64,000 nucleotides of DNA from Yuukianura sp. NJ FZ-2021 (taxonomy: Eukaryota), in the NCBI GenBank assembly GCA_046563655.1, contig CM102285.1, positions 10,416,001-10,480,000 of the forward strand, read 5' to 3'. The translations under genes and the position numbers were made by a program. Positions within the stretch are counted from its first letter, which is position 1, and every line of letters begins with the position of its first letter. Below are positions 7,611 through 64,000 of the stretch, one piece after another. The notes beneath the pieces were generated by a model. The model made no database searches, was not told the origin of the DNA, and saw only the letters and a program-made list of their open reading frames with translations.

Positions 7611-9766
7611 ATGGATATCGTGGAAGGAAACTTGGATGATGCAGATGACCGTGCAAGTCGCGTTGCACCATTACGCGGATTTGCACATGCTGGAGAAATA
7701 TGGCATCAAGTAATCTTTTTTAAACCAAAAATCTAAATTTTTCAAAAATCCATTTTCTATAGATGTTGATGGAGGACTTTCGCTTCATGGAAGCTGCTCG
7801 AATGGAATCTGGAGAGTACGAAGGCGCTGGACTTTCCACGGACGATTTAAAACGTGAAAAAGAAAGATATTTGACAAATTTCACAAAATTACAAGCTAAG
7901 CTTATAACCAAGATTCCCATCTTTAGCCCTGTCAAAAGTGAAGCAGCTCATGATCACAAATCCTCAAGGACTTGTAAACTTCTCTAGTTATGATCATAAC
8001 GCAGCGCCGAATGTGGTAAAATGAACACAGTGATTAATGGAAGTAATCAGAATTGGGCCAACACAAACAGTTAATGATTTTTTAGACCGAAGAGTCGGAC
8101 TACGTTATTGTGACGGATTTTAGAACGCGGCGGTTTTTGACGCGTATGTCAGTATGGGCGCCAAGGGCCGTTTTTGCGCACTGGTTACTTGGAACGCGTG
8201 CCTTCCAAATCTTCATGATTCTTGTCATCATTTCCAATTCTATTCTTATGGCCATCGACGGAGGTAAGCAACCTAAACACGACTGCTGTCAAAGGTTTAA
8301 TTTTGAGAGAAATGAAAATTCTGAAAACTTGAATTACAGCTTAAAAATTGTTTCAGAATTGGAAGCCGATGCTGCAAAAACTGCCAGACCGATTTTAGAC
8401 ACGCTTGACTTTTTCTTTTTGTCAATGTTCGTTTCTGAAATTCTGTTGAAGTGGGCTGACAGTTTTAAGCTATTTTGGAAAGACTACTGGAACATTTTTG
8501 ACTTTGTGGTTACATCAATGGTAACTTTCAAAATGTGAAAATTACGATGAAGATTTTTGAAGCATTTTTCCTGAGAGTTGTTTATGTTTAGTCTCTAGTT
8601 GCGCCTGGCCTTGACCTTTTCACTCAATACACTCAAGATGATGAACGTTTGACGACAATAATTTCAGTTGTCAAATACATTCGAATTCTCCGAATCATGC
8701 GTTCCCTCAATGTGGTCACTCGGATTGAAAAGATCATGGTGATTTGGGCTGCAATTGCTCGAACAGCAAAGTCACTCCTGTTCATAACGCTTCTCATGTT
8801 CATCTTCTTCTACATTTTTGCTGTCATTGGTCTCCAAGTTTTTGAAAAATTTACAAAGTCACATCGAACGGATCTTCTATACAAGGATGCTTTCAGTGTA
8901 AAAAGTTTTTTACAATTCAGTTCACATTCAAATTCACTTTTGTTCCATTTTGCTCAGCATCTTCCGAACGCAATGGTGACGCTGTTCCAACTTTTCACAT
9001 TGGACAAGTGGTATCCCATCATTATGAACTTGGGAGAAGGAATGGAAGACCTGACAATGCCCGTGATCTACGTTCTTTTTTGGATTCTGCTGGGCTCTTT
9101 CATTTTTCGAAACATTTTTGTTGGAGTAATGGGTAAACACTTACGAATTTGGGAAAAAGAAATTCGAAATCTGATTTAAACTTCAACTTTTTTAACTCCC
9201 AAGTAAGCAACTTCCAAAACATTCGAATGGAATTTCAAGAGGAAGAAGAAATTTCGCTAATGGATGAAGAGCGACTGGAAAATATGGAACTCAATGTTTT
9301 TGGATTACACGAAGACATGTATCTCCGCATAAAAAGTCGTACGCTAACTAAATATTCCGAGGTCATACTAAAATCTTTGACGTTTTAGTACCAAAAATGT
9401 TACTGGAAAAGAGGACGTGTTGATTGACTGGGAAGAACAAGTATTCCATGACCTTAACCTTCTCAACTTGTGTGAAAATCTGGAATTGACCCCAACGTTA
9501 TGGCCGCGCGACACATTGTTAGATTTTTAAAAAACCTTAACCAAAATATTGTATAGTGATCTCAATTTCTCCTTTTAGATTTCTATACTACATTCTTATG
9601 GAATCTTTGTCCTGGAATATCGATGAACGAGACATTTTATTTGACTATATCAGTAAGACATTAAGTTGAACCTAACCAAACGTTAAGTTAAAAGTTATAC
9701 GAGTTTCGAGGAATTTATATTGATTTTGTTTTAGACACGGCTCTTTCGATGTGCTATGATCGCTGA
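7611..9766 (+). CDS. CATSPER2: CatSper2-like sperm cation channel alpha subunit, copy A
   Basis: Multi-exon single 6TM domain. S2-S3 EILLKWADSFKLFWKDYWNIFDFVVT; S4 KYIRILRIMRSLNVVTR; S5 LLMFIFFYIFAVIG; FTKSHRTDLLYKDAFS-HLPNAMVTLFQLFTLDKWY (TxDxW filter); S6 WILLGSFIFRNIFVGVMVSNFQNIR; C-terminus DWEEQVFHDL...WPRDTLFLYYILMESLSWNIDER. These match recalled CatSper2-specific motifs (RSPRQDLEY, TLDHWY, NFQNIRKE, LDWE, WPRDSLFRY). ATG at 7611, TGA at 9764-9766. Confidence 0.9.
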
Positions 9767-10371: not shown

Positions 10372-12593
10372 ATGAATATCGTAGAGGGCCAGTTGGACGA
10401 CCCAGATGACAGCGCAATTCATGTTTCACCGTTGCGTGGATTTGCACATGCTGGAGAAATATGGCGTCAAGTACATTCTGAATTTTGAAGTTTGAAAAAA
10501 ATAAAATCAAAAAGTTCTAAGCTATAGTTTTTGTGGTTAGATGCTGATGGAAGATTTTCGTTTCATGGAAGCTGCTCGAATGGGATCTGGAGAGTTTTAT
10601 ACTGGCGGTGATCTCTCTACGGACGATTTAAAACGTGAGAATAATTTGTTTTAATTATAATTTTGTTTAAAATTAACAAAAATTGTTAGAATGTTTGGAT
10701 TCTTAGAGATGTCAAAGGTCAAGCAGCTCATGATCACAAATCCTCATGGATTGATAAACTTTGCCAATTACGATTATAAGACCCCTCTAACCAGTGTAAT
10801 AACCAAACCATTAATAAGGTGAAGCAATCCGCATTTTTTAAATTCAAACATTAATTTTTATTGACTTATTTAGAGTGAAGAGAAGGATTACGTTGTCGTC
10901 ACAGACTACAGAACACGTCGGTTTATGACGCGCATGTCCGTATGGCCGCCGAAGTCCGTTTTTGCTCACTGGCTACTTGGAACTCAAGCGTTTCAAACCA
11001 TAATGATTCTTGTCATCCTTTTCAATTCTTTCCTGATGGCCATCGATGGAGGTTAGAAATGCTAAACCTCGTTGCAGTCATGATATAGTTTTGGAAAAAA
11101 CGCTGGAAATTGTTTGACGTTAAAAATATTGCTTTGTAGAATTGGGAATCGAAAATTCATCAACTGCCAGGCCAATTCTAGACACGCTGGACTTCTTCTG
11201 TTTGTCAATGTTCGTTCTTGAAATTCTGTTGAAGTGGGCTGACAGTTTCAAGTTGTTTTGGAAAGACTACTGGAACGTTTTTGATTTTGTGGTTACAGCA
11301 ATGGTAACTGTTAAAAAGAGACGATTTCAGAATTTTCTGGTAGTTTTTGTTCAATCAGCTTCTTTCTTATAGTCTCTAGTTGCTCCAGCCCTGGACGTTT
11401 TGACACAATCTACCCAAGACGATGATCGCTTAACACTTATCATTGCAATTGTCAAGTACATTCGGATTTTGCGAATCATGCGTTCGCTGAACGTAGTCAC
11501 TCGAATTGAAAAGATCATGATCATTTGGGCTGCAATTGCCCGTACAGCCAAGTCGCTTCTGTTCATCACACTGCTCATGTTCATCTTCTTCTACATTTTT
11601 GCTGTCATTGGGCTACAAGTTTTCGAGAAATTTACAATTTCACATCGAACTGATCTTAAGTACAAACATGCCTTCAGCGTAAGAAGTCTTTAAAATTAAA
11701 CGAGTACTTAATCGCCGTGCTTCAATATTCTAGCATAGCCTAACTACGGATAATTTTCGTTGTTCGATTTTTCAGAATCTTCCGAACGCAATGGTAACGC
11801 TGTTCCAACTTTTCACTTTGGATAAGTGGTACCCCATGGTTATGACCCTTGGAGATGGAATGGAAGACATGACAATGGCTGTGATCTACGTTCTTTTCTG
11901 GATTCTCCTTGGTTCTTTCATTTTCCGAAATATTTTTGTGGGCGTAATGGGTAAATATTTAAAATTTTGAAGAACTTTAGAAAATTGCGATCAAGATTTC
12001 TGTTTTATTCACTCTACAGTAAGCAACTTCCAGAATATCCGAAAGGAATTTCAAGAAGAAGAGGAAGTGACGCTAAGGGATGAAGAACGTCTGGCGGAAC
12101 AGGAACTGAATGTATTTGGATTACACGAGGACATGTAAACCGTCTATATCAAAAGGTCAACCACTAAAATAAGAGGTCAAACTAACTCTTGGCAAATTTC
12201 AGGGGTAAAAATATTGATGGGAGAGAAGACGTATTGATTGATTGGGAAGAACAAGTCTTTCATGACCTTAACCTGCTGAATCTGTGTGAGAATCTGGAAT
12301 TGACTCCTTCGCTTTGGCCACGCGACACATTGTTAGATTTAGAAAAACCTTTGCAAATTCGACCCGAATTTTTACTGTGTTTAATCGCAAAATATTTCTT
12401 GCAGATTTTTGTACTACATCCTAATGGAATCCTTGTCCTGGAATATGGATGAACGAGACATTTTATTTGACCACATCAGTATGTACTCACGCTGCTGCCA
12501 AGTTTTAATGTATAACTTAACTATTTTTCTAGACATTTCTAAAATTTCGATCCCGTTTTAGACACGGCTCTTTCGATGTGCTATGATCGCTGA
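10372..12593 (+). CDS. CATSPER2: CatSper2-like sperm cation channel alpha subunit, copy B (tandem paralog)
   Basis: Starts MNIVEGQLDDPDDSAIHVSPLRGFAHAGEIWRQ. It has the same exon architecture and intron phases as copy A, the same S4 and TLDKW pore, NFQNIRKE, WPRDTL, and the identical end TALSMCYDR* (TGA 12591-12593). I saw no frameshift or premature stop in the hand-spliced model. Confidence 0.9.
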
Positions 12594-13322: not shown

Positions 13323-15253
13323 ATGGAATACGGTAACCCGGTGATGATCACGTCCAATATGAACTTTGCCTTAGGAGGGGATGTCGTGAAAGCAGGTCCA
13401 AATAGTAATTCGTTTGTACGGGATATCAGCATCATAACGGCGTTCATGGCCACCAATTATGCCATTCACAAAGCTGCCCCTCATGTTCGGCCAGCTATTT
13501 CACTTATTGCTCGTCGGGTAAGTTTGGAATTGCAATCTGGGACTCCCAGACTGGGAGAGCTACGCTAGTCAAGTAAATGAGACGTTGTTACGGTGTTTAG
13601 TTAACGTTAAAGTACTGTTGTTTCTTGTAGTCTGGACCGTATTTGAACCAGCTAAGCGAAACGGCACGCGGTGTTGCAGACGCTGTTTCCCGAATTCGAA
13701 GCCTACTTCGCAGAAGAAATGAACACGAAACATTCGTCCGATTTGTTGCAAGGAATCTTCCATCGTTTATATTTGATCCAGCACCTCGAATATTTGTTCT
13801 ACTGCAAGGAGTTTCATGTGCTTCCGCTAACGAAATATTAAGAGATAGACAAATTCGCCCGGCCCTTAGTGAATTAGAAGAATTTAATGATGAGGGAATC
13901 ATCGTGGCTTATGCAAAGACGTCTGACAGCGAAAGTGAAGCTGTGGAACCGACAGATGCACTTCCGGATTTTGGATTCGTGGATACTTGGCCTAACACCA
14001 ACCTAACTATGAAATTCGATCCATGGTAAAACGTATCCCTTATGAACTTACTACTATCGACCTTTATTCACATCATGCATAACCAGTTTAGTTAGTTTGG
14101 ATAGTATACAATATTCATCGTATTGTTCTTATTTCATAGGACTGGTGCTGGGGGTTGCTCCACTCCGATGGGATATGCCTCGCCTGTCCATCAATGGCTT
14201 GCCACAAGTGTGAATCCACCAGCCCAATTTACTAATGAAGAATCAGCCGTTCTGGAGGCGAATGCAACAAAAATTGCTACACTGGAAGCCGAGCTTATCA
14301 AAATGAAAGCAATGGTTGAAACGATTCTTCAAAGTCAAGCGAATTTTCGGGATTATCCACCCGCACCTCAGCCGATCCCAATAACAACTCAGCAAGAGCA
14401 TTTGAATCAACCATCAGCAGCACCGCCCCCACCTCCGCCTCCTCCTCCTCCTCCAGCTCCAATTTTTCATTCAGCCCTCAACGGTCAAAAAATCATCAAG
14501 CTGAAAACGAAAACCGAGCTAGAATCTAACGCACTCACTCCTCCAGTTCCTACTGAAACAACTAAGGCTGGCCCGTTATCGATGTCTGATGTCTTGAAAG
14601 GATTGAGTAACGTGAAGTTGAAACCTGTTGAACGGTAAATGTAACACGTAGACGTTTACTATCTTTGAATTTGTACAAACTCGCTAACATTGTTGTCTAT
14701 TTTTAATGCCAAAGATCCCCAGGGGGGACCCCGTTCAAACCGACTCGAATCTCAAATGAGACTGATCCCGCTGCAATGATTGCTGCCGCCCTCAAGAAAC
14801 GGTTTGCCAGTATCCAATCTCCGGCCTTATCGAATGTGGACGAGGAAGATAGTTTCTCCGACAAGGAAAATCAACCATTGAGTGGCTCAGACTCTTTTAG
14901 CAAAAGCCCTTCTTTTTTCCAATTCGGGAAATCTGGGAATCGTAAGAAGAAGTCCAGTGCTGCAGTGCTTGATTCGCCATTAGGTCTGAAACGTTCCAGT
15001 TCGGATCAGAAGCTGAATACATCCTTTCCGAAAAAGAGAAAGTCAACTGGTTCTCCGGCAGAGCAATCTCCAACACCATTGGTGAGATTCAATAATTCTC
15101 ATCCTTTTTTTTTGCTTGCCGTACTGCAACTTATAATAAAAACGCTCACTTTGACAATTTCAGTTTGGTCAACATTTGCTGAAACGGAGAGTTACTAACT
15201 CGCTGCAGAAGAAGCTGGGACGATTGAGTCTGGGCGAGGAAACAAACAACTAA
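13323..15253 (+). CDS. MTFR1: Mitochondrial fission regulator (MTFR1/MTFR2 family)
   Basis: Exons 13323-13517, 13631-14025, 14140-14634, 14715-15081 and 15164-15253. Family motifs: FVRFVARNLP, coiled coil KIATLEAELIKMKAMVETI, polyproline tract, SMSDVLKGLSNVKLKPVERSPGGTP, DPAAMIAAALKKRFA, FGQHLLK. The start codon choice is less certain. Confidence 0.85.
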
Positions 15254-45600: not shown

Positions 45601-48600
45601 AATTGATCGCAAATAGAAGTATTTGTGGTTTTACATTTTTTCGTTTTCATATTCATGTCGCTCAAGTTGATGTCGACGAAAGTTTGTCGACTAATTTGCT
45701 ATTCCTGGACCAGCACCCTGGTTACTCTATGTTCATTTTTGGACCGTGGTTAAGGTTAAACTTGAGTGAAACTGGTTCGTAGAGATTGAGTTTTTAGTAA
45801 AATCAGAGGAGCGTGAAATTGAATTTTACTTGCGAACAAGCAACATGGTTTTCTCGGTACAAATTCGTAAGATGCTATCTACGCTCCAATTTCTTCTCAT
45901 TGAAACATGAGGGCGTAATTCAATTTTATATTTTTAGTAGACAGGAACCTACAGCGTTTCTAAATCGACTTAATTCCATGTCACCCTAAAACTCTTCAAA
46001 GGCAAATTAAAATCTCAAATTGCGCATTGAACTTTACAAAAACGCTGTCCTGGAAATTGTAACGCTAAAAGATAACGTTCAAGCTCCAGAAATATTTTTC
46101 GCTAAGCTTGCAAATTTTAAAAACCTTAATCACATTTGGCCTAATTGTCAAATTTTAAAACATGAAAGTGTAATTAAATTAACCAAAACGTACGCATTCT
46201 TACTTATTTTTTTTGAGAGAAAAAAAAGTTAAGCCTTAAAAAGTGGGAGGTATTTCGTACGCTTTCTCCGTTTTATTCAGAAAGAACTTTGATTTCAAAA
46301 TTCCTCAAATCAGTTCTCCAGAAATGTTCTCCCTAGTCGGTGATACATTTTCTTTTCAAGTCCAGTAAGGCCCAGTGGAGCCTCATCTTCTTCATATCAA
46401 TTTAAAAGCAAAGGATGACTCTAAACTGGTAATTCAAATGCAGATCACAAAATTACGAAAGTCCTAGTTAGCTTTAGTTTTGCTTTTATCCGACTTTAGC
46501 TGGGCTACTAGCTTTTGAACATTCCGAATCAAAGCGAAAAACTTAAGCCTGCAATTTGTGAAAACTGCTTTGGGAAGCGAAAATTTTAAGCCGCAAAACC
46601 GCAATAATAATAATAAGTTACGTACTTACGTGGAATTAGGATTCAAGTCATTTTCAAATCCTCCTACGCAGTAGCAGTTAGTTACCCTCTTTCTCTTCCA
46701 TACTTTTTGATATCTTTTGATCTTAATTGCGTGTGCACAGGCAATAGCTCAGGATCAAAAATTTCTCTCGATTTCCGATTTTTGTTACCGCAGTAAGTTA
46801 CAACAAAGGGAGGATATTTGGAAACAGTGGGAATTTCAACAGGCGTTTGTATTCTTAGGAATGTGAGATTTATGTGTAACCAACATCAAAGAATTCCAGT
46901 GTTTAAGCTCCTCTTTCTTTTCGAAATGTAGAAAGATTCGGAATGTTTCGGTCTCTTCAACAAATTCCATGAAATCGTGTTTTGAAGTGGAATGAAAGTA
47001 TTTTTTTTTGGAAGTGAAAGTGAAAAAATTTGAGACACTTTGTACAATTCTACCGTATTTGGCTGTTATTGGTTGTGGAAGCATCTTGTCTTAAAAAATA
47101 AGGGTCCACGGTCCATCCACTTTTGATAATGACCTGGATCGCCATGCCAAAAGGAAATGGAGCAAGACCGTAGGGAAGAAAGTGTACTTTCTTTTTTCCA
47201 ATTCCACTTTCATATGTCTTTGAGTCCAAAACTTTATGTGACATTTGACCTCATTCTTCCTGTTCATGTACCCAAACAAAAAAGAACAAAGAGAATCTAC
47301 AACTGGGTTTATTGAATTACAGAGAACATGAAAGGAGAAGAAGTGCTTAATGTAGCGCTCAAAATTCATACTTGTGTCGTTTTCAATTTTTTCAAAACGA
47401 TTACACAGAACAGAGACAAATGAAATTTCGACTGAATGTTTTCAACCCTTTTGTACCAGTTTTACTATGTTCAACTATACGGAGAAAGAAGGTCAAATAT
47501 GTTACAAATTTTTACCAGTTTTATCAACTAAAATTTCGAATTCTGAGAAGTCAGAAAGAATTTTCAGCAAATTGAAAAGGGCACATGTCAGTTTTCAAAA
47601 ATGGAAGTAAAGAGAAGCTTTTCCTGGCATATTCTACTTGAAATTCAGATGAGTAACATAGTCATGCATTCTTGGATCTTTTTGAAAGAAAGTGCTGAGA
47701 AAAAGCCAACTAAACTACCTGATGGTAGTGGCAAGTCAAAAACTCTAACAGAATCTACTCAATCTGACAAGAAAAGTCTTGATTTCGTTAAAATTATGAA
47801 CTCGGTTACTTGAAATTTTTAAAACTCACACCATAGAAGGGGACAAACAAAACTAGAAAACGAATTCTTCCAAATTTTTGAACCACTGTTCGCACAGTGT
47901 CATTTGCATCTGAAAAATTTCTTTGTTGGTGCACTTTCACCTCGGCTGCAAAATCAAGTTTTCCAATTCAGAGATTTTTTTTCAAAATTTTTGATTCAGA
48001 TACTATTGGCTTAGTTAGAAATTTAGAAAACTTGAAAACGACAATTTCTACCATATTTCCAAAAATTGGTTACATTCGTTCGTGTAAACTTTCTCAAAAG
48101 TGGAGCGTTAGCAGTTGCAGCAGGCAGAAAATGTTTTCAAAAATTAGTTCTAAAAATGAAAAGAAAGTTTGTCTTTTCTTTTTTTGCTTTTCTTTGATCT
48201 TTTTCGTGAAATTCCTAAAATTCTGTTTTGTTTTTAAGAAATGAAACTGAGCCGAGGCGTGGAGAAGGAAGGAGCTAGAGACGGAAACATATCACCCTGC
48301 GAATGGATCCTGTTCCAAAGTCTAGACTGTTCGGAAACACGACCGCTTCATGCTGGACCGTTTCTCACGGTGCAGCGACGTCGTCGCCGTCGCAAGTACG
48401 TGCGAACCTATCTGTTCAAGGATCCAACGCTGATTGATGACCTCTCAGCCTACCAAACAAATTTCGTCCTCGACAGAATTAGCAAATGGGCATTTAATGC
48501 TTTTATACTCGACAATGTGACGGGAGGTAAGACATAAGAGCACTTCATTTCCGTTTCTGCAGTCGCAATTCAATGTTCTTAGGTAAACGAGAGACCCTGC

Positions 48601-54600: not shown

Positions 54601-57600
54601 GTACCAAGAAGATCAAGTATCAGGGAGGCTGCTGTGGAAGAAGGCATGCTAGCACGGAGCGCCAAAGGAAGGACATTAAAAGTTCAAAGTAGATTTGTCG
54701 TACTGCCGGAAGTTCAGAACGAAATTTTAAATTCCAACACCTCTTCGCAACTTCACAGAAACCAACAGCACCAAAATTTTCATAATTTCTTGGCAAACAA
54801 ACTGAAAGAAAAAATCCTTTTCAAAAATGTAATTTTAAAAATCAAGAATGGTTACCACCTTGACTTTCCCTTTTCAAAATAAAAGCCACACCATTTTCTA
54901 ATCTCTTTCTACTATCACAAAAAGCATACAACGTCTTCTCTTATTACAATTTTTTAAAACTAGAGTCAGTATAGTACAGTTTTCCTTCGAAAAAGAAAAA
55001 TCACGCAGAATTTTATGAATAGGGAAGGCGGATATTATGGGTGAAAGTCAGAAGGAAGCCTATTGTTCCCATTCCCCAATCCAAAAACTTTGGGCACGTG
55101 GAGTGGATTCCAATGACGTAATTCCTGCTCTCCTTAGCTCGCTTGCCAAAAAAAGTGAAAGTTTCAACTTCCTCATGAGTCCATAGCCCTCTGCAGTAAG
55201 TAGTGACTAACGGATCAAACGAAACCTACGCTAACAAAAATTGCACCCGTCCCCTCTCTCCCACCACCACTTCCTCGTTCCGGTAGCATAATTTCCTACA
55301 CTTCCATGGGCCCGTGGAATTGGAAAAGGAACGGAGATAAAGGTGAAGGAACTTTCTTTTTCCTAGGGAAACAAAACTCGTGACTTTCACTTTTTCAAAA
55401 AACAAACTTACCTTTCTCCTTTGAAAATTAAAAACGGAGAGATGAAGGTGAAGTTTTTAAATCACTGTAGAAAAAACACGATTCACAGGCAGAGATTGGG
55501 CGATTGGGGATTTGAGGAATTCGGATGATTCGGAGATGAAGATTCATGTTAAATTTTTTATTACTTTTAGTAACTGTTTGTTTTATTTGTATTTTTAGAA
55601 TTCTTCTGTGCTTGAAAATCATCACTGGCGATCAGCTATGGGGTGTTTGAATGAGAGCGGAGTCAGTGAGGTTCTGGGGCGTGAGAACGTTGCCCTCGTT
55701 GAAGAACAAATAAAGTCTCTAGTTTTGGCAACGGATATTACGCGTCAACAGGAGTTTCTGACGCGTCTGAAGGTAATGAATCATCTTGTAGCTTCGTTGT
55801 CGTTTTCTCCCAACGACATTTCATTTCCTCAGTTTTCTAGATTTTTTTCTCCAAAAAATTAATTTCCTAACAGTAAACAAATGGACTTTTTAAAAGGAAA
55901 TAGCAGTTATAAATTACACGTTAGAAATGATCGATGTTGTCATCCAGGCTTTTCCTCTCTAAAAACGTTTTTTTTTTTGCACTTCTGAATACTGGTCTAG
56001 TTTATACATAACATGACCTAATGCTACTCACCTAACCTAACCGCTACGTTGTTATTATTAGTGTGAATGCTTTCACTAAATGTTGGAAAGACGTGGGTTT
56101 TCAGAATTCAGAAACGTGAAAGCATCTTTGACATTTCTTTAATCCTTCAAGGGTGTTTCCCCCTTGCTTCGTCCGCTGCTTAAGTGAAAATGTGTTTGAT
56201 GACCTTTTGCATTGCAGGCGTACGTTGACACGGATACGTTGGACATGAATGACCCTGGTGTCCGTCACTTTGTTCTTCAAATTGCTCTTAAGTGTGCAGA
56301 CATCTGTAATCCGTGTCGACCGTGGGATATTTCTAGGAAATGGAGCATGAAAGTCTGTGAAGAGTTCTTTCGGCAAGGTGACTACGAGCGTCAACTCCAA
56401 CTGCCTGTCACGCCTGTTTGTGACAGATATGCTACTTCCGTCCCCAAAATACAGACTGGTGAGTTCCGTTTTAACAAAACGATACTTGTTCAGAACAAAG
56501 GGAACAATGTCTCCTAGAGCACAATTTTTGAACATCGTCTCCAGGAAATAAGTTCGAAGTCAATTGAAACGTACAAAATACGGAGAAAGTTGGACTTTCT
56601 CAGCTGAGGACAAAAAAAGCCAGAGTTGAATAGAAGCAGAAGCATAGTTCAACCTGTTTTGGAAATTCATGAACGTTGCAGTTGGGCGATGAGCAATACA
56701 TTTCATCTGATTGAATTTTAATCACATTATGCTGAGTTGATCATTTAATTTGTTTAATGAGGATCTTTAGGAAAAATGAAATCTTTGGAGAAATGTTTCG
56801 GAAAAGCTTGTGATTTCATTTCCTAAAGTAAAAAAAATCTCCAAAAAACCTACACTCATGTTCTTAAACTTAGATGTTTTTTTATTCTAACTAAAAAGTA
56901 AAGTTATGCCTTTGCACTTTGTAAATTCGTAATTTGCAAATGGGAAATTTTCATTTTCTTAATTCCTTTCTAACTCTGAAAGTCTATGCTATGGATGGAT
57001 GGAGTGAAAGATTATTGTGAAAAAAAGAAGAAAGAAAAACTTTTTGACTTTCACTGCTCCAAAAAGACGAAAACTTTTTTTTTTGTTAAAATTATTCTTG
57101 TCTTACGGAAAAGAGAAAGTATAATGTTTCACGATTGAGTTTTTTTTTGTGTTGAATTTTGACCCACTTGATTACCAAGTTTCGAAAAGAAAGAGAAAGG
57201 AAAAAGAAGAAGTTTCTTTGCTTTCCCAATTTGAAAGTTTTTGTTTGTTTTGTTTCAGGCTTTCTAAAATTTGTAGTTCGGCCTCTATTTGAAGAGTGGC
57301 ATCGCATGATGGACACACCGCTGTCGACAGTTATGATTGGCAACTTGAATTCGAACGACATCAAGTGGAACCAACTTCTGGAAGCTGAGCAAAATCAAGA
57401 AGCACTCACTGCCGAAATGGAAGCAGAAGAATCAGAATTAATTCGAAACATGATCATTGAGAATCCGGATTTGATTAATACAAGACCATCGGCACAGCGA
57501 TCCCGAGAGCCCAGTGAATCTGATCGTGAAAGTCGTTCTGTACGCTTCGAACCTACAATAATAACGGCCAGTGACTCTGAAGAGACTTCAGAAGCTGATG

Positions 57601-60600
57601 ATACAATGTACATGCCCAAAATTACTAGAGAGCCTCGCAATACAAATGAGTTTCTCAATATTCCAAGGCCGGATGGTCGGAGGCACTCAATTGCTACAGG
57701 GTTAATGGGTGACAATATGCAAATCCCAGCTCAGCTACTTCAAATGGCCAGTGGACTCAGCAGTGGCAGTGGCAGCTTGCTCAGTATTTCAGACATGGTC
57801 AGTGGCGAGACGTCGACGGGGCGCTTGGTTGGCCGAACGACAATTCGCAGAGAAAGTTTACCAGCGGGGCCTGGAGCACGCGGAGCCGCATTGTCGTCTA
57901 AAACGATTTTGCATTTACAAAAAATTAGTAGCGGACGACTACTGGGTGAAGCTGGGTCATCTACGTCTCCAGCCGTGTCACCACTTGAAGGTGACGACAC
58001 AGTGCCACCTTCTCCAAATCGTGTTTTAACTGAGAAAAGCAGTTGTTCCAGTGCTTCAACGGATGAGATTCTTGACTTTACGTTTAGTCTTCCAGAACCG
58101 TCGAGTCGCTCATCAGGGAGTCCACGTCGTCTCACTGAAACAACAGACTTTGACGAGCTATGTCCGGGCACTAGTATTTTGTCCATGTCAAATCGTGTTG
58201 CACACATAACTCTCCAGCATGGCGCTGATTTAGAAGATCAGCGTCGTCATCTCATACGCCAACAAACATGTCCTGTCGTCAGTGTAAATGCTGATGGAAC
58301 CTTGAGCCAGAGATTTGAGCGTCCGAGATTTCTATCTGCTGCGGCAGCGATTAGTCCAACGGCAGTCGCATCTTCGTCAATAATTACACAGCATCGTCAG
58401 AAAAACAAGAGTCCGGAAAGTGGTGGTGAAGGGGATGGAGCTGGACTGTTGTCGTCAGCTCGTGGAAGTCGTGGAAGCAGCAGCGAGGCGCTGAAGTGTG
58501 AAGTTGTAAGTTGACAAAACTGAAATGCTGTAGTTGTAGATTTAATTTTCCAAAGTTAAACTAAAAGTTGAGTTGTTTTGTTTTACTATGTAGATTTCAG
58601 AAGAGGCGGATCGTCAAAGCGGAAGTTCAGCTGAAGCAAGTCCGCTTGAAATATTTGTACAACAGTTTCCTCCATCCGATGACAATGACGGTTCAGCACC
58701 GCGAAGAGGCAGTGAAAGTTTCCTCAGTGAAAGTGAAGTTCGGAGCATCAGTGCTAGCAATAATAATAGGTCCACGAGCTCACTCAATATTGATCCAGCA
58801 TCCTCTCCTGATGGAACTCCGGATTTGAAGCAACTTCTTCCTTTCGATGGAGTTCCAGCTCAAGAAACTGGTGGGTCAGCTCAGGTCAAAGAGGAAGAAA
58901 CTTCGGCTGGAGAGGAGAGACCAAGATCAAATTTTAGTGTCAGTTGTCAAAGTGGATTTGGACTGGAAGAAAGTGAATTTAGACCCTCCGACTCTCTTCC
59001 TTTGTCGTCATCACCTCAATTAGATCTGAAAGCAGCTAAGCCGAGCAGCAGTCGAGAGAAAGTTGACCCCGCGGCACCCGAAATGAAATCAAATCCAGTC
59101 AACACGACTTCAGGCAGCATCGTAGAAAGTCAAGTTCCAGCAGTCTCTCCATCATATACTACCTCAAACGTATCCATTTCCACACAGACTGACTTATCCA
59201 GTTTTGAAAAGGAGAACATTGATCCAAGAAGTTGTGGCTCAGGTACAGCTAGGGCTCCGCCAAGTGGTGGCTCAGTTACCACAGTTTCCACCGCATCCAC
59301 CTCAATATCCAACCTCAATACGCCCACTCAACTTCCACAAGCTTCTGGTTCAAGTGGCCACATCCCAGTAACGAATGTCCCCTCTTCCACCTCTACTTCA
59401 AACGCCAGTCGCTTAGCAACCATCCTTATGTGGCGGAATAATCGGTTATGGAAGAGTCTTACGGAAGAGGAACATGAAGAGCATCCAACGTCGTCATTGG
59501 ATCTGGATCCAGAAGATGCTCATCATCACTTACACCACCATCACGCCCACGGTGGTGGTCAACTGCCTCTTCCGGACTATTTTGAGCGATGGGACGTTCT
59601 CATGTCACAACAAAGTCATCAAGTAAGTTTATCCTAAGCATCTTCATTTGCCCGGAAGCTTGTAAGCGAGTCAGCATCTTCAAAAAATTTCCAGACTTTC
59701 ACTCAAAGGATCTAAAAATATAAAAATCTGAGACCCCGGAATTGGGAAACTCTTGGATAATGGGAATAGGGAGAATACAATTCAATTTTGGGAAAGTTGG
59801 TTTGAACCGTACCATGCATTCGGTTTTCCTACGCAGTAATTGAAAGCTTCAAGGAAAAAATCCATGAACATGGAATATGGAGAGCATTCAAGTGAAATTT
59901 CCATTTTCTCTACTACTTTCTCCAGCTTCCCTTGTGTGCCAATTTCAGTAGACCAGAAGCACCACCACTGAGATTCAAAGCTTAAACTTTCTCCTCAAAT
60001 TCATATTTTTTTCAAAATCCAGGAAGATGCGAGGAACCAATTCAGCAACTCACCTGTACAAAATCCAATCAAATCAAAATACAAAATATTAATTTTTTTT
60101 TACTACAAAGCACTTGAGGTTCCCATCTAAGCTAAAAATGGCAATTTCCCGGAGAGATCCCACGTCCAATTTCTTTTTTCATATCCAAATCTGGCCTAAA
60201 GTGCTGCCTTCCCTGCTCTAGGTACTTTCACTTATTAGATTCGTTGTGAAACGTCTGCCTCGATGAGTTGAGTGAAGTCTTTGAAGTGGATACAAAATAT
60301 TCTAGATTTTGTTAAGGACCAACTTCAATCAGTACGTTGAGAGGCAGATTGAAATTAGGGCGGATTCGTATTTGAATTTATGATTAGCCAGAGTGCTTGA
60401 CTTTAACTCATTGAATTTGAAGGGAGTTGTGGGCGGACGGCTTCAGATGAGGCGTGGCTCGGCTCCTACGGCGTCTCCAGCTCTGGGTTGTCGCGGTGCT
60501 TTGGATCGGCGTTCGGATCCTACGCAGTATCACTCCAGTAGCTGCGTCTCTTCGAACTTTAACTTTGCAAGTCTCTTTGGAAGCCTTCCGTTGTCGGAGA

Positions 60601-61401
60601 CGCCATCATCAGCTACTGGTTTTGCCTATGGTTTAGGAGCCACAACAAAACAGCAGCAGCTTCGTAGAGGCTCCGCCCCAGTGGAAATGCTTCGACCAAG
60701 TAAGAACGTTAAAACATGCAACATTTTAAAAAATGGCTTTCAAATTTTTAAAAACTTCAAATTGCTCTACCATAGCCATGCTACGGCCGAATCCACCAAG
60801 TTCAAATAAAAAGCAGCCCCCGCCTCGAATGGGTCGCAGAGGATCTCTTCCGACGGATCCATCAGCCAATTCAGGTTAGCATTTTTGAAAAATACGCGTT
60901 AAAAATGTAACGTTATTAGTTTGAAAAAAGCACAAGCTAAAATTTTAACTTGTGATGTGCAGAGTCTTCTTTTGCGTACAAATGGATGCATGTTTTCCCG
61001 TACAATGAAGATGATGGTCTCGCAGCATCAATGAAACGTCGAAGTTCTGGTACTGAGCTCTATGCAGCGGCACACACAAAAATCCCAACAACCTCCGCCA
61101 TAGCATCCTGGAACGCCCAGCTTCTCATGGATCAGTTGCATGCGTCCGGAAGTGCTGGTCCATCGTCATGTGCTGCCAGCGTCCTCTGGCCAGGAGTTCG
61201 ACGTGGGTCGTTGCCAATTGAAGTGTATGCTTCTGGCTCATGCTCTTCTGAATCTGAATCCTCCGGTAAGGTTTCGAGTAAGCCCAAGACGCTGACTTCA
61301 AAACAAAACACATTCAATTAAAATTTTGCTTACAAAATGTTGTTCAAAAGTTTAAAAAACTTACAATTTTCAATTTAGCTGGAGATAGCAGCGACGCCTA
61401 G
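21573..61401 (+). CDS. PDE7: cAMP-specific 3',5'-cyclic nucleotide phosphodiesterase, PDE7 family, with long Ser-rich C-terminal tail
   Basis: Phase-consistent exons: 21573-21665 and 37603-37654 (both tentative), then 48239-48526, 49333-49428, 53618-53850, 55599-55772, 56218-56458, 57259-58505, 58594-59622, 60423-60699, 60776-60874, 60963-61265 and 61379-61401. Catalytic motifs [81 protein letters not shown] and IQTGF match recalled PDE7A/B sequence. Confidence 0.9.
28863..29016. mobile_element. Degenerate MITE-like inverted repeat
   Basis: TTGGCCAAAAGTGAAAAGACCA (~28884) pairs with TGGCCTTTTCACTTTTGGCCAA (~28973). The outer ends are CAGGG...CCCTG and there is a central CCTAACCTA. Confidence 0.55.
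34361..34404. repeat. 15-bp tandem repeat, 3 copies
   Basis: AGCCGATATTTCTAA-AACCTATATTTCTAA-AGCCGATATTTCTA. Confidence 0.7.
36139..36734. mobile_element. 596-bp foldback/MITE-like element with 237-bp inverted arms
   Basis: By eye, 36139-36375 (AAAGGAGATGGCAC...ATATATGTCAA) is the reverse complement of 36498-36734 (TTGACATATAT...GTGCCATCTCCTTT) with no mismatch seen. The spacer is 122 bp and there is no coding capacity. Confidence 0.85.
37603..37654 (+). other. Putative 52-bp PDE7 exon ([17 protein letters not shown])
   Basis: Pyrimidine tract plus TTCCAG| acceptor and CAG|GTGAGA donor. The phase-1 end joins AA-ATG at 48239 in frame (E-M-K-L-S-R). Confidence 0.6.
51183..51439. mobile_element. 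Mutator/foldback-type MITE with modular TIRs and 9-bp TSD
   Basis: Four AATCTAAGCA units on the left, four inverted TGCTTAGATT units on the right, and central GGTTAGGTTTGGTTAG runs. TTCATCTCC flanks it directly at 51174-51182 and 51440-51448. Confidence 0.8.
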
Positions 61402-61719
61402 CATAAATCCAAACTGAATCTTCGTCATCTCCACCATCACCAAGCGAATCTGCCTCATTCAATATCATCATCAACTTCCCAAAACGTAAAGTCTGAACAG
61501 AATGGATCTAATTCAGATGAGTCCAAGTGCTCAAACTTTAAAACTGCTTCGCCAATTTCGCTTCATCAAAAGGGAATCGCTGCTGTAATTCAGACACTGT
61601 TTCTCAAGCGTATTCCAATCGCTGAAGATGGAGGTTCCGAATCTGTCATCCACTTTGAAGTTGAAGATGCTTCATTTTTCTATCATCACACTTTCCAAGA
61701 AAGACGGCGGTCTGTATGA
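61402..61719 (+). other. In-frame 105-codon ORF immediately after the PDE7 TAG (candidate readthrough extension)
   Basis: GCC TAG CAT AAA TCC... continues without a stop to ...GAA AGA CGG CGG TCT GTA TGA (61717-61719). There is no in-frame ATG. Confidence 0.55.
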
Positions 61720-64000
61720 CACTTTGTTACTTAAGAGCTATAATTATTTATAAGTTAATTATAAACTAACACCTACAAAAGTTTTTTACAAACTGACAAC
61801 TTGTAATAGACGCTACAAACGCAATACACGAAGATTTCTTGAGCAAAATTCAAGAGATATGACTTCAACAACGGAAGTCTATCCGTTTTTGTACTAAAAT
61901 AAAATTTTGACTTAACTTTAATTGTTACTTTTACCCAACTTAAAATTGTAATACAACAGGGTACAACAAACAACATAAAAACAATGCGGAAACAGCAAGA
62001 ACAAAAATCATATGCATTATTCAAACACTTGTGAGTTGGGAAACTGTTAAGCTAGTTTTACACTTTAACTTGAAAAGGATTAGACAGAAATTGGTTCACA
62101 ATTTTGTACAATTAGGCTAATGTTTATAAATGTTAATTTAAGGGTAATGATTAGTTTTATGATCCCTTAAGTTTGTTGAAATTTCCAGAATCAATCTGCC
62201 GTGTTGTACAATACTTAAATTATTGATAATCAGATAGATTGTTCCCAGTGTAGCTTCAAATCTTATAGTCTTTAGTAGTTTACATGTTGTACTGTTTTAA
62301 ATTGTAGACTTTTAGCTCAAACTTTGAAGACGCTTTTTAGAAAGGCATTTCAGAATGGTTTGAAAACCGATTGTTAGAGACTTTGTTCTGAAATTCTGAA
62401 AATCGTGAATTCAGTCCTGCGAGAGTTGCGACTGTGCGTTTACGTTAATAGACGCGTAATATCTCTACGGAAAGACATCTTTAGATACATTTTAGAGGTT
62501 GTGAAAAGGAGATCACGGATGGAATGCGGCAGTAGTTTAGAGTTAGGCGAGTTAATTTAACGAGAAGTAACGTTTTTAGTTAATTTTTTTTAATTAAAGT
62601 TGCGGTTTATTATGTTCTTTATGTTCGTATAATGTCGTAATAAATTTTGTCGCGTTCTCTTGATAGGTTTTCTATTGCAAAATGTTTGGGGTTTAGTTAG
62701 AAAATCAAAATGGTTTTTAGACACTGACGCTAAGAGCGTCGAGATTTTTTGCGTCTTAGCGTAGACGATTTATCACAATGTTTTGATCTGACCTCTTCCG
62801 TTTTAAATTATTGACAGTACAAGTTAATCAATATGATGACCCGAGCTAATAGTAAGATTTAAAGTAGCGGAAGACTTAATTTAAGTTTCTAGGATACTTT
62901 GTAATAAAAAGAACGGGACGCTGTGAACCCATGAAATGAAATCCAATGTCTTCTGAACTCTAGTTAAGTTAAAACGCTGCTATTACGCGATAAGACCTTA
63001 GGTTATGTTAAGACATCGGAATTATTCAGCGTCTTTTGTTTGCAAAATGTGTAGGTTATATCACCCTTGAGACATGACCTTGGTTGAGGTAAAGCTTTAT
63101 TAGCCTCACAAGAATTTAGTAGTTGAAATGGAATAATAATTACAACTTTTAAGTTCTTACTGTGAATAACAAGTTTGAAAGTAATAATAAAGGGACTGAT
63201 TAACATCACCGAACACTACGTTTTGATTTCAGTTGACGAGATTTTAGAGCCACGCATGCGCTTGCGACTACTACGAACTCAATAAAAAGTTAAATTAACA
63301 ACAATTCAATAGGATTCCATTATAACTTCCATTTCGCAAAATATTCTGCCTTGACTTTCGCACGATCTTCTGGCCATGGAAGTTCAGGACTTATTCCATT
63401 CATCCGTCGATCTTTCTTTACTTTAGTCTAAAACATAAATCAATTTGACATTTTGAAATTGAAACAGGTTTGTGTAATAAAATATTTTACCCAAAACTTT
63501 TGGCAGACTATGTAATTGGCAAATACAGGTTCGCAAATAGTTTTGTTGTAGTCATTGTCCGATAGACATTTATACGCCTGGTCTTGTTCCTGTATGAATC
63601 AAAGATTTGATCGGTGAACGTGAACGAGAATTATGAAAGTCCAAATTGAATTTTAAATTACCTTAATACAAGGATTATTGTATTCACTTTTCAGTTTTGA
63701 CCCCATTTGTATCCTTTGTTCCCTTTCTTCTGGCGTCTTTGCTTTCGGCAGGTCAGCAGCATTGCTCCGAAACATCGTGAATCACACAAATGCTAAATCA
63801 AAAAATCAAATCAATCGGTCGACGAACAATTTTTCAGTAAATCAAAATCATAAATGCAAAAAAAAATGTTTTGCAGAGTTTAGCGCTATTGAATTTCAAA
63901 AACGGAAACGAATCGGGTCTTCCTAAAAGACGGATCGCGGATTCGACGTATTGCTGCGCACTATACAATGGAAGGAAAGAGAGGCGCGCACTATACAAAG

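Follow-up and report, generated by a model that had tools for sequence, protein, structure and literature searches.

A conserved coding extension behind the UAG-C stop of a springtail PDE7-type phosphodiesterase gene, a candidate for stop-codon readthrough

The DNA analyzed here is a stretch of 64,000 nucleotides (nt) from the springtail Yuukianura sp. NJ FZ-2021 (GenBank assembly GCA_046563655.1, contig CM102285.1, positions 10,416,001 to 10,480,000), called the window below. The subject is the 3' end of a phosphodiesterase gene on its forward strand, where an open reading frame (ORF) of 105 codons lies in frame behind the UAG stop codon. Three upstream exons match the Pfam family PF00233 (PDEase_I) with E-values of 1e-23, 2.8e-09, and 1.3e-24. 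Among the solved families, human PDE7A is the best match (1.3e-29) of a catalytic exon in the window, with PDE8A as the runner-up (5.1e-17), and the Allacma ortholog matches PDE7A best (1.3e-111 compared to 5.8e-59 for PDE4D). These matches identify the gene as a springtail PDE7-type phosphodiesterase. They bear out the PDE7 label given to it in an initial account of the window made from the letters alone, referred to here as the sequence-only reading. Mammalian PDE7A is a high-affinity phosphodiesterase specific for cyclic AMP (cAMP), and the PDE7A1 form has N-terminal RRGAI pseudosubstrate repeats. We know of no readthrough reported for mammalian PDE7A.

At its C terminus the springtail protein has a tail of ~1000 residues, for which six exons (A to F) code. 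Eleven proteins matched the first tail exon in a search. Six of these are close (E ≤ 2.5e-90), and the three that are named come from Allacma fusca, Folsomia candida, and Orchesella cincta, all of them springtails. R[RK]x[ST] motifs, RRSSG among them, occur nine times in exons A to E (window 57259-61265), and most are also present in the Allacma, Folsomia, and Orchesella proteins. The tail thus has the appearance of a substrate with many sites for a basophilic kinase. Pfam returned no family for the tail exons or for the extension described below. The likeness to mammalian PDE7A lies in the catalytic domain, which matches PDE7A best. The difference lies in the long tail with its nine sites of the RRxS type, a region not covered by the PDE7A chains of known structure (318-389 residues). 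An N-terminal PDE exon (window 48238-48534, + strand) encodes a run of six arginines that is kept in Allacma and Folsomia.

The features at the 3' end of the gene are given in window coordinates, with L001 denoting the orthologous locus on a metagenome contig that is introduced below.

60963-61265, + strand: penultimate coding exon (exon E), ending ...SCSSESESS plus one G (phase 1)
61266-61378, + strand: last intron, 113 nt, guanine-cytosine (GC) content 0.28, acceptor tttag|C at 61378|61379
61379-61398, + strand: last exon before the stop, (G)CT GGA GAT AGC AGC GAC GCC, encoding A-G-D-S-S-D-A
61399-61402, + strand: first stop, TAG (61399-61401) with C at +4 (61402), the UAG-C candidate leaky stop
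61402-61716, + strand: ORF behind the stop and in its frame, 105 sense codons long, the candidate C-terminal extension
61402-61461, + strand: codons 1-20 behind the stop, HKSKLNLRHLHHHQANLPHS, with the frame kept and open in both the window and L001, peptide not conserved
61462-61512, + strand: conserved block of 51 nt, ISSSTSQNVKSEQNGSN, with nucleotide-level identity to L001
61624-61644, + strand: EDGGSES motif, codons 75-81, conserved in the comparison with L001
61672-61716, + strand: C-terminal motif SFFYHHTFQERRRSV, codons 91-105, conserved in the comparison with L001
61717-61719, + strand: second stop TGA, at a position common to L001, where the AT-rich 3' untranslated region (3'UTR) begins

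Exon E has its donor G|GT at 61265|61266 and has 58-64% identity with the corresponding segments of the Allacma, Folsomia, and Orchesella proteins. The sequence-only reading had described a last exon with a few codons (A-G-D-S-S-D-A) before the TAG, 105 open codons without an ATG behind it, a sharp turn to AT-rich sequence after the second stop, and an RRxS-like motif at the end of the extension, and the sequence agrees with this description throughout. The post-stop ORF holds no Met codon in the window or in L001, and its peptide is exactly the one quoted. The GC content drops from 0.41 in the extension to 0.29 behind it (0.286 and 0.295 in the following two 315-nt stretches). The peptide ends in ERRRSV, comparable to the nine R[RK]x[ST] motifs of the tail exons. 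The start of the region had been placed at 61379, which is correct as the first base of the exon; that base is codon position 2, and the codon frame runs from 61381 instead.

The 105-codon open frame exceeds chance. Over the six frames of the window, real exons included, 40 of 7033 stop-to-stop intervals (0.57%) reach at least 105 codons. When the stretch is shuffled, it stays open in 0.22% of 20,000 mononucleotide and 1.36% of 5,000 dinucleotide shuffles. Its remaining five frames contain 3, 8, 7, 9, and 4 stops. Four ways of explaining the arrangement were rejected. Excision of the TAG as part of a small intron would need a GT, and window 61379-61398 contains none. The last exon read in another frame reaches a TGA after 12 codons, and an antisense gene would have to pass the 7, 9, and 4 stops in the reverse frames of the stretch. 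A recent nonsense mutation is at odds with the orthologs, which share the stop position. The Allacma, Folsomia, and Orchesella proteins end where the window does (...SESESSAGD[A/S/T]SDT). Because these named orthologs terminate at the matching position, the stop is taken to be old and to be neither a sequencing error nor a recent nonsense change.

A profile of exon E was used to search metagenome contigs, and among 95 matching stretches there was one relative, L001, a contig of 4935 nt with 68% identity in exon E. Exons B to F of L001 keep the order of the window. Its orthology is supported because the same convergent gene lies downstream on the minus strand in both loci (window 63440-63781, L001 4694-4933), with the peptide ...YKCLS[DE]N[DN]Y[ND]KTIC...FANY[IV]VCQKFW. 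The comparison at the DNA level covers these two species, the window and L001. The last exon of L001 encodes AGDSSDGA and is followed by TAG-C, 117 open codons, and TGA, and the sequence TAG-CAT-A is identical in both (L001 2405-2411). The extension peptides end in ...SSFFYHQTFRERRRSV in L001 and ...ASFFYHHTFQERRRSV in the window. Their common ending is ...SFFYHxTFxERRRSV, with the second stop directly after it. The L001 frame stays open in 0.165% of 20,000 shuffles, and 6 of 513 L001 intervals reach at least 117 codons. The open frame of L001 is an independent test because L001 had no part in choosing the finding. With L001, the stop position is common to five springtail sequences, which indicates that the stop is not recent.

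The divergence between the two loci is large enough to read selection from the pattern of change. The proportion of synonymous differences (pS) is saturated in the flanking exons at 0.708 (E), 0.743 (C), and 0.725 (B), and the proportion of nonsynonymous differences (pN) in exon E is 0.179. In the extension, 52 of 105 aligned residues are identical and pN is 0.36, compared to 110 of 208 residues and a pN of 0.30 in the accepted exon B. A plain DNA alignment places gaps of 9, 3, 18, and 6 nt in the extension, all four multiples of 3, compared to two of nine in the intron and 3'UTR and one of six after the second stop. Identical alignment columns amount to 32% in the last intron and 37% beyond the second stop, and both similarity and GC content fall exactly at the common second stop. 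Over the last 118 nt of the extension, the mismatches are distributed 8/7/20 by codon position (binomial P = 0.003), and the last 31 codons have a pS of 0.65 and a pN of 0.164. The codons for E, R, R, R, and S all differ between the species with the residues unchanged, and EDGGSES has three synonymous codon differences and no replacement. The codon-usage score per codon is +0.15 in frame 1 and -0.31 and -0.52 in the other two frames; 196 windows of 3'UTR scored -0.79 ± 0.17 with a maximum of -0.45. These data indicate that the stretch 61402-61716 is coding, translated, and under purifying selection. Because this ORF lacks an ATG in both species, the extension must be joined to the upstream reading frame. 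The ortholog comparison proposed in the sequence-only reading, which looked for a conserved in-frame stop with synonymous-biased change downstream, is thus positive with L001 and supports the C-terminally extended PDE7 isoform proposed there. Two of the three objections raised in that reading are excluded, the one that the frame is not conserved by the TAG-C, open frame, second stop, and in-frame indels common to L001, and the one that the TAG is an error or polymorphism by the shared stop of Allacma, Folsomia, and Orchesella.

A second type of constraint is found inside the extension. The block at 61462-61512 is identical to L001 (about 2477-2530) at 49 of 51 nt and has one synonymous difference over ~12 synonymous sites (P ~1e-5 given the pS of exon E). 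These counts indicate nucleotide-level constraint on top of coding. The block occurs once in the window and holds the sole positionally conserved AG, GTWAAG|TCT (window 61492, L001 2510), in phase 0. Rfam gave two matches, both below the gathering score (19 versus 69 bits and 15.5 versus 42 bits), and the region of the block has no notable fold. Its role could be to stimulate readthrough, to control splicing, or to serve as a binding site.

The extension appears to be a real, selected coding part of the PDE7 gene, and the route past the stop that we infer from the sequence as the most likely one is readthrough of the UAG-C. Readthrough and RNA editing both need the ORF to be in frame and open from the stop, and splicing does not. 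The L001 ORF is in frame with the stop and stays open across 23 unconserved codons, for which chance is estimated at 1/3 × 0.15-0.36, or 0.05-0.12. The in-frame, open start in L001 thus favors readthrough over splicing. Several of the features by which readthrough is recognized in comparative work are present at this locus, namely a coding signature behind the stop, a conserved stop, C at +4, and no ATG or antisense cause. Springtails belong to the Pancrustacea. Abundant readthrough is proposed to have arisen in the Pancrustacea in the account of Jungreis et al. 2016 (PMC5100048), and a Drosophila survey (PMC13278127) reports an enrichment of C at +4 for each of the three stop codons among readthrough stops, and readthrough of 23% and 50% for fly UAG elements. 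Known examples mentioned in these sources are synapsin and vvl/drifter, in which UAG is read as Gln, and the UAG elements of nAChRalpha1 and CG6282 (PMC5100048, PMC13278127). As far as these two papers describe them, the Pancrustacea readthrough genes resemble the PDE7 gene in several respects: a conserved stop with C at +4; a second ORF under amino-acid selection that evolves faster than the best parts of the first; a mostly disordered extension without ATG and with a conserved second stop; and a long regulatory gene with a long 3'UTR. The present case differs from the insect genes in its springtail host, in its support by a two-species sequence comparison rather than by multi-species PhyloCSF, ribosome profiling (Ribo-seq), or a reporter, and in having a 51-nt block 60 nt past the stop and no 3' RNA structure.

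In the proposed mechanism, most ribosomes would stop at the UAG and give a form ending in ...SESESSAGDSSDA, and a fraction would insert a near-cognate residue at the UAG and continue. Glutamine is the residue reported at UAG in fly readthrough genes (PMC13278127). Readthrough would then add 105 residues, of which ~70 are predicted to be disordered, followed by a short segment resembling a beta-hairpin and the terminal RRRSV-COOH.

Several observations, collected in this paragraph and the next, weigh against readthrough, and those at the start of the extension speak for alternative splicing, an unlikely explanation in which an alternative 3' exon would supply the ORF as its coding part and the transcript would bypass the stop. 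The first 20 post-stop codons have 4 of 20 residues identical to L001, with a pN of 0.554 and a pS of 0.536, and their counterpart in L001 has 23 codons, a length difference of 9 nt. These 20-23 codons are not conserved as a peptide, and no amino-acid constraint is seen there. One splicing route would lead from the phase-1 donor of exon E to an acceptor 3' of the TAG, for which AAG|CG at window 61445 has a 75% pyrimidine tract and the phase of that donor. This candidate has no positional conservation, and the sole phase-1 AG before the block in L001 has a pyrimidine fraction of 0.3, so that L001 offers no pyrimidine-rich phase-1 acceptor. The other route would lead from the phase-0 donor of exon A or B to GTWAAG|TCT, dropping the RRGS-rich exons C to F. 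Both species share this site in phase 0, the acceptor of exon C is likewise an AAG with a modest tract, and the conservation of the 51-nt block surrounding the shared AAG greatly exceeds what coding would require. Regulated splice-site flanks often show such nucleotide conservation. An exclusion rule given in PMC5100048 assigns a good 3' splice site behind a signature-free stretch to a splice variant. What argues against splicing at the shared site is that the 10 codons before its AAG (ISSSTSQNVK) are a conserved peptide in the same frame. Against either route stands the frame, which is in register and open from the stop in both species with the low chance estimated above from L001 alone. No library protein joins ...SESESS or exon B to the extension, which is weak evidence.

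The remaining points concern the RNA context, the protein searches, and the breadth of the comparison. UAG is described as less leaky than UGA (PMC13278127). The post-stop RNA shows no stable or conserved structure (z = +2.0 and +0.54); the 146-nt stretch is less stably folded than 197 of its 200 shuffles (z = +2.0), and the two-species consensus fold reaches only -3.7 kcal/mol. The tobamovirus-type readthrough context is UAG-CARYYA, and the six bases after the UAG are unlike it (CATAAA in the window and CATAGG in L001). The folding results also tell against RNA editing, in which adenosine deamination in some of the transcripts would convert UAG to UIG, to be decoded as Trp. Editing would act on the central A of the stop, a conserved base, and the same in-frame, open, and conserved arrangement is expected for it as for readthrough. 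However, no duplex involving the TAG was found in the 146-nt stretch or in a 281-nt pre-mRNA stretch with the upstream intron (z = -0.02), the consensus fold is weak, and stop-codon editing is rare. We regard editing as very improbable. Comparison of the extension peptide with 1.84 billion representative proteins gave no true homolog; the single hit was a 2680-residue repeat protein in which a stretch of 27-32 residues was matched repeatedly, a repeat artefact. None of the 61 candidates among longer proteins scored with the extension peptide. The exon E profile found five longer proteins, none with the extension, and 126 matches in genome contigs and 34 in viral contigs with no relative in either. 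Two of these five proteins, P0013 and P0014, had not come up in the other searches; they are ORFs of genomic DNA extending into introns and are uninformative on the extension. The ESM Atlas gave no usable match. At L001 2528, the codons AAT AAA form an AATAAA hexamer inside the extension ORF; in the window, none precedes 61898. The restriction of the DNA comparison to two species belongs to the same side. The lack of a peptide homolog, the nucleotide-level constraint on the 51-nt block, and the mostly low confidence of the structure model described below also suit the view that the extension is not translated, being a chance frame or the relic of a recent stop gain with a conserved regulatory sequence in the 3'UTR. 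This view is hardly probable given that the stop position is common to all five springtail sequences, that the open frame recurs in L001 at 0.165% of shuffles, and that all four gaps keep the frame. The third-position bias of the mismatches (P = 0.003), the retention of ERRRS through synonymous codon changes, and the drop of similarity and GC content at the common second stop are further points against it. Readthrough of the UAG-C is the route that we consider probable after these points are weighed.

The possible role of the extension was approached by structure prediction and motif comparison. An AlphaFold model built from the two sequences has a mean predicted local distance difference test score (pLDDT) of 47.6, with residues 1-70 below 50 and predicted strands at 68-72, 78-87, and 90-99 (pLDDT ~67). 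The model fits a disordered linker followed by a small beta-hairpin (residues 78-99, low confidence). In the window and in L001 alike, the TGA comes directly after the terminal RRRSV. This ending fits the R-x-x-pS/pT-x-COOH pattern at the extreme C terminus and also the basic-basic-x-Ser-hydrophobic pattern of protein kinase A (PKA) that is seen nine times in the tail. The former pattern is that of mode III 14-3-3 sites as described by Kilisch et al. 2016 (PMC4760375), where TASK channel termini of the form -KRR[K/S]SV-COOH are reported to be PKA substrates and mode III ligands of 14-3-3. A second stop directly after the valine in both species would follow because a mode III site works only at the protein end. 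The terminal RRRSV-COOH could be a PKA and mode III 14-3-3 site, as a five-residue pattern that is weak alone would suggest. The likeness to the TASK channels is one of sequence pattern only (-E-R-R-R-S-V-COOH in both species with the stop after Val conserved), and the host protein here is a soluble-type phosphodiesterase rather than a channel. Readthrough would add a tenth basophilic-kinase site to a tail with nine, and the terminal site could act as a phospho-dependent mode III 14-3-3 site that links the isoform to cAMP/PKA feedback.

A more far-reaching proposal, which we put forward as speculative and quite unlikely as a whole, is that UAG-C readthrough serves as a cAMP-feedback switch. 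RRRSV-COOH would be present only in the readthrough isoform, its phosphorylation by PKA would lead to mode III 14-3-3 binding and a change in location or activity, and the extent of readthrough would be set by the 51-nt block, a cis element acting through its specific sequence and not through a structure. If this were true, the block would be a kind of readthrough stimulator that is not yet described.

Predicted readthrough genes number in the hundreds in flies and mosquitoes, and to our knowledge few of them have a clear function for the added tail. The PDE7 extension is a useful case in that it is long (105-117 codons) and conserved across saturated divergence, its short terminal motif is biochemically testable, and the host enzyme degrades the messenger that activates PKA. 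The 51-nt block is a candidate cis regulator. A full-text literature search, judged by title and the start of the abstract, found no readthrough gene for Collembola or for PDE7. The main text of PMC5100048 does not contain 'Phosphodiesterase' and that of PMC13278127 contains neither 'Pde' nor 'dunce'; the supplements of these papers may list such genes. If confirmed, the case would extend the evidence for old, abundant readthrough in the Pancrustacea to a hexapod lineage outside the insects and would offer a compact system for how a readthrough isoform rewires cAMP signaling.

Other genes were noted in the window at a distance from the phosphodiesterase. Two neighboring sets of ORFs at 8086-9176 and 11124-11967 (+ strand) match the Pfam family Ion_trans and share near-identical peptides, for example SLVAPGLDLFTQYTQDDERL and SLVAPALDVLTQSTQDDDRL; they look like a tandem duplicate of a cation-channel gene. 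An ORF at 14105-14635 (+ strand) matches the Pfam family Mito_fiss_reg (mitochondrial fission regulator) with an E-value of 4.2e-11.

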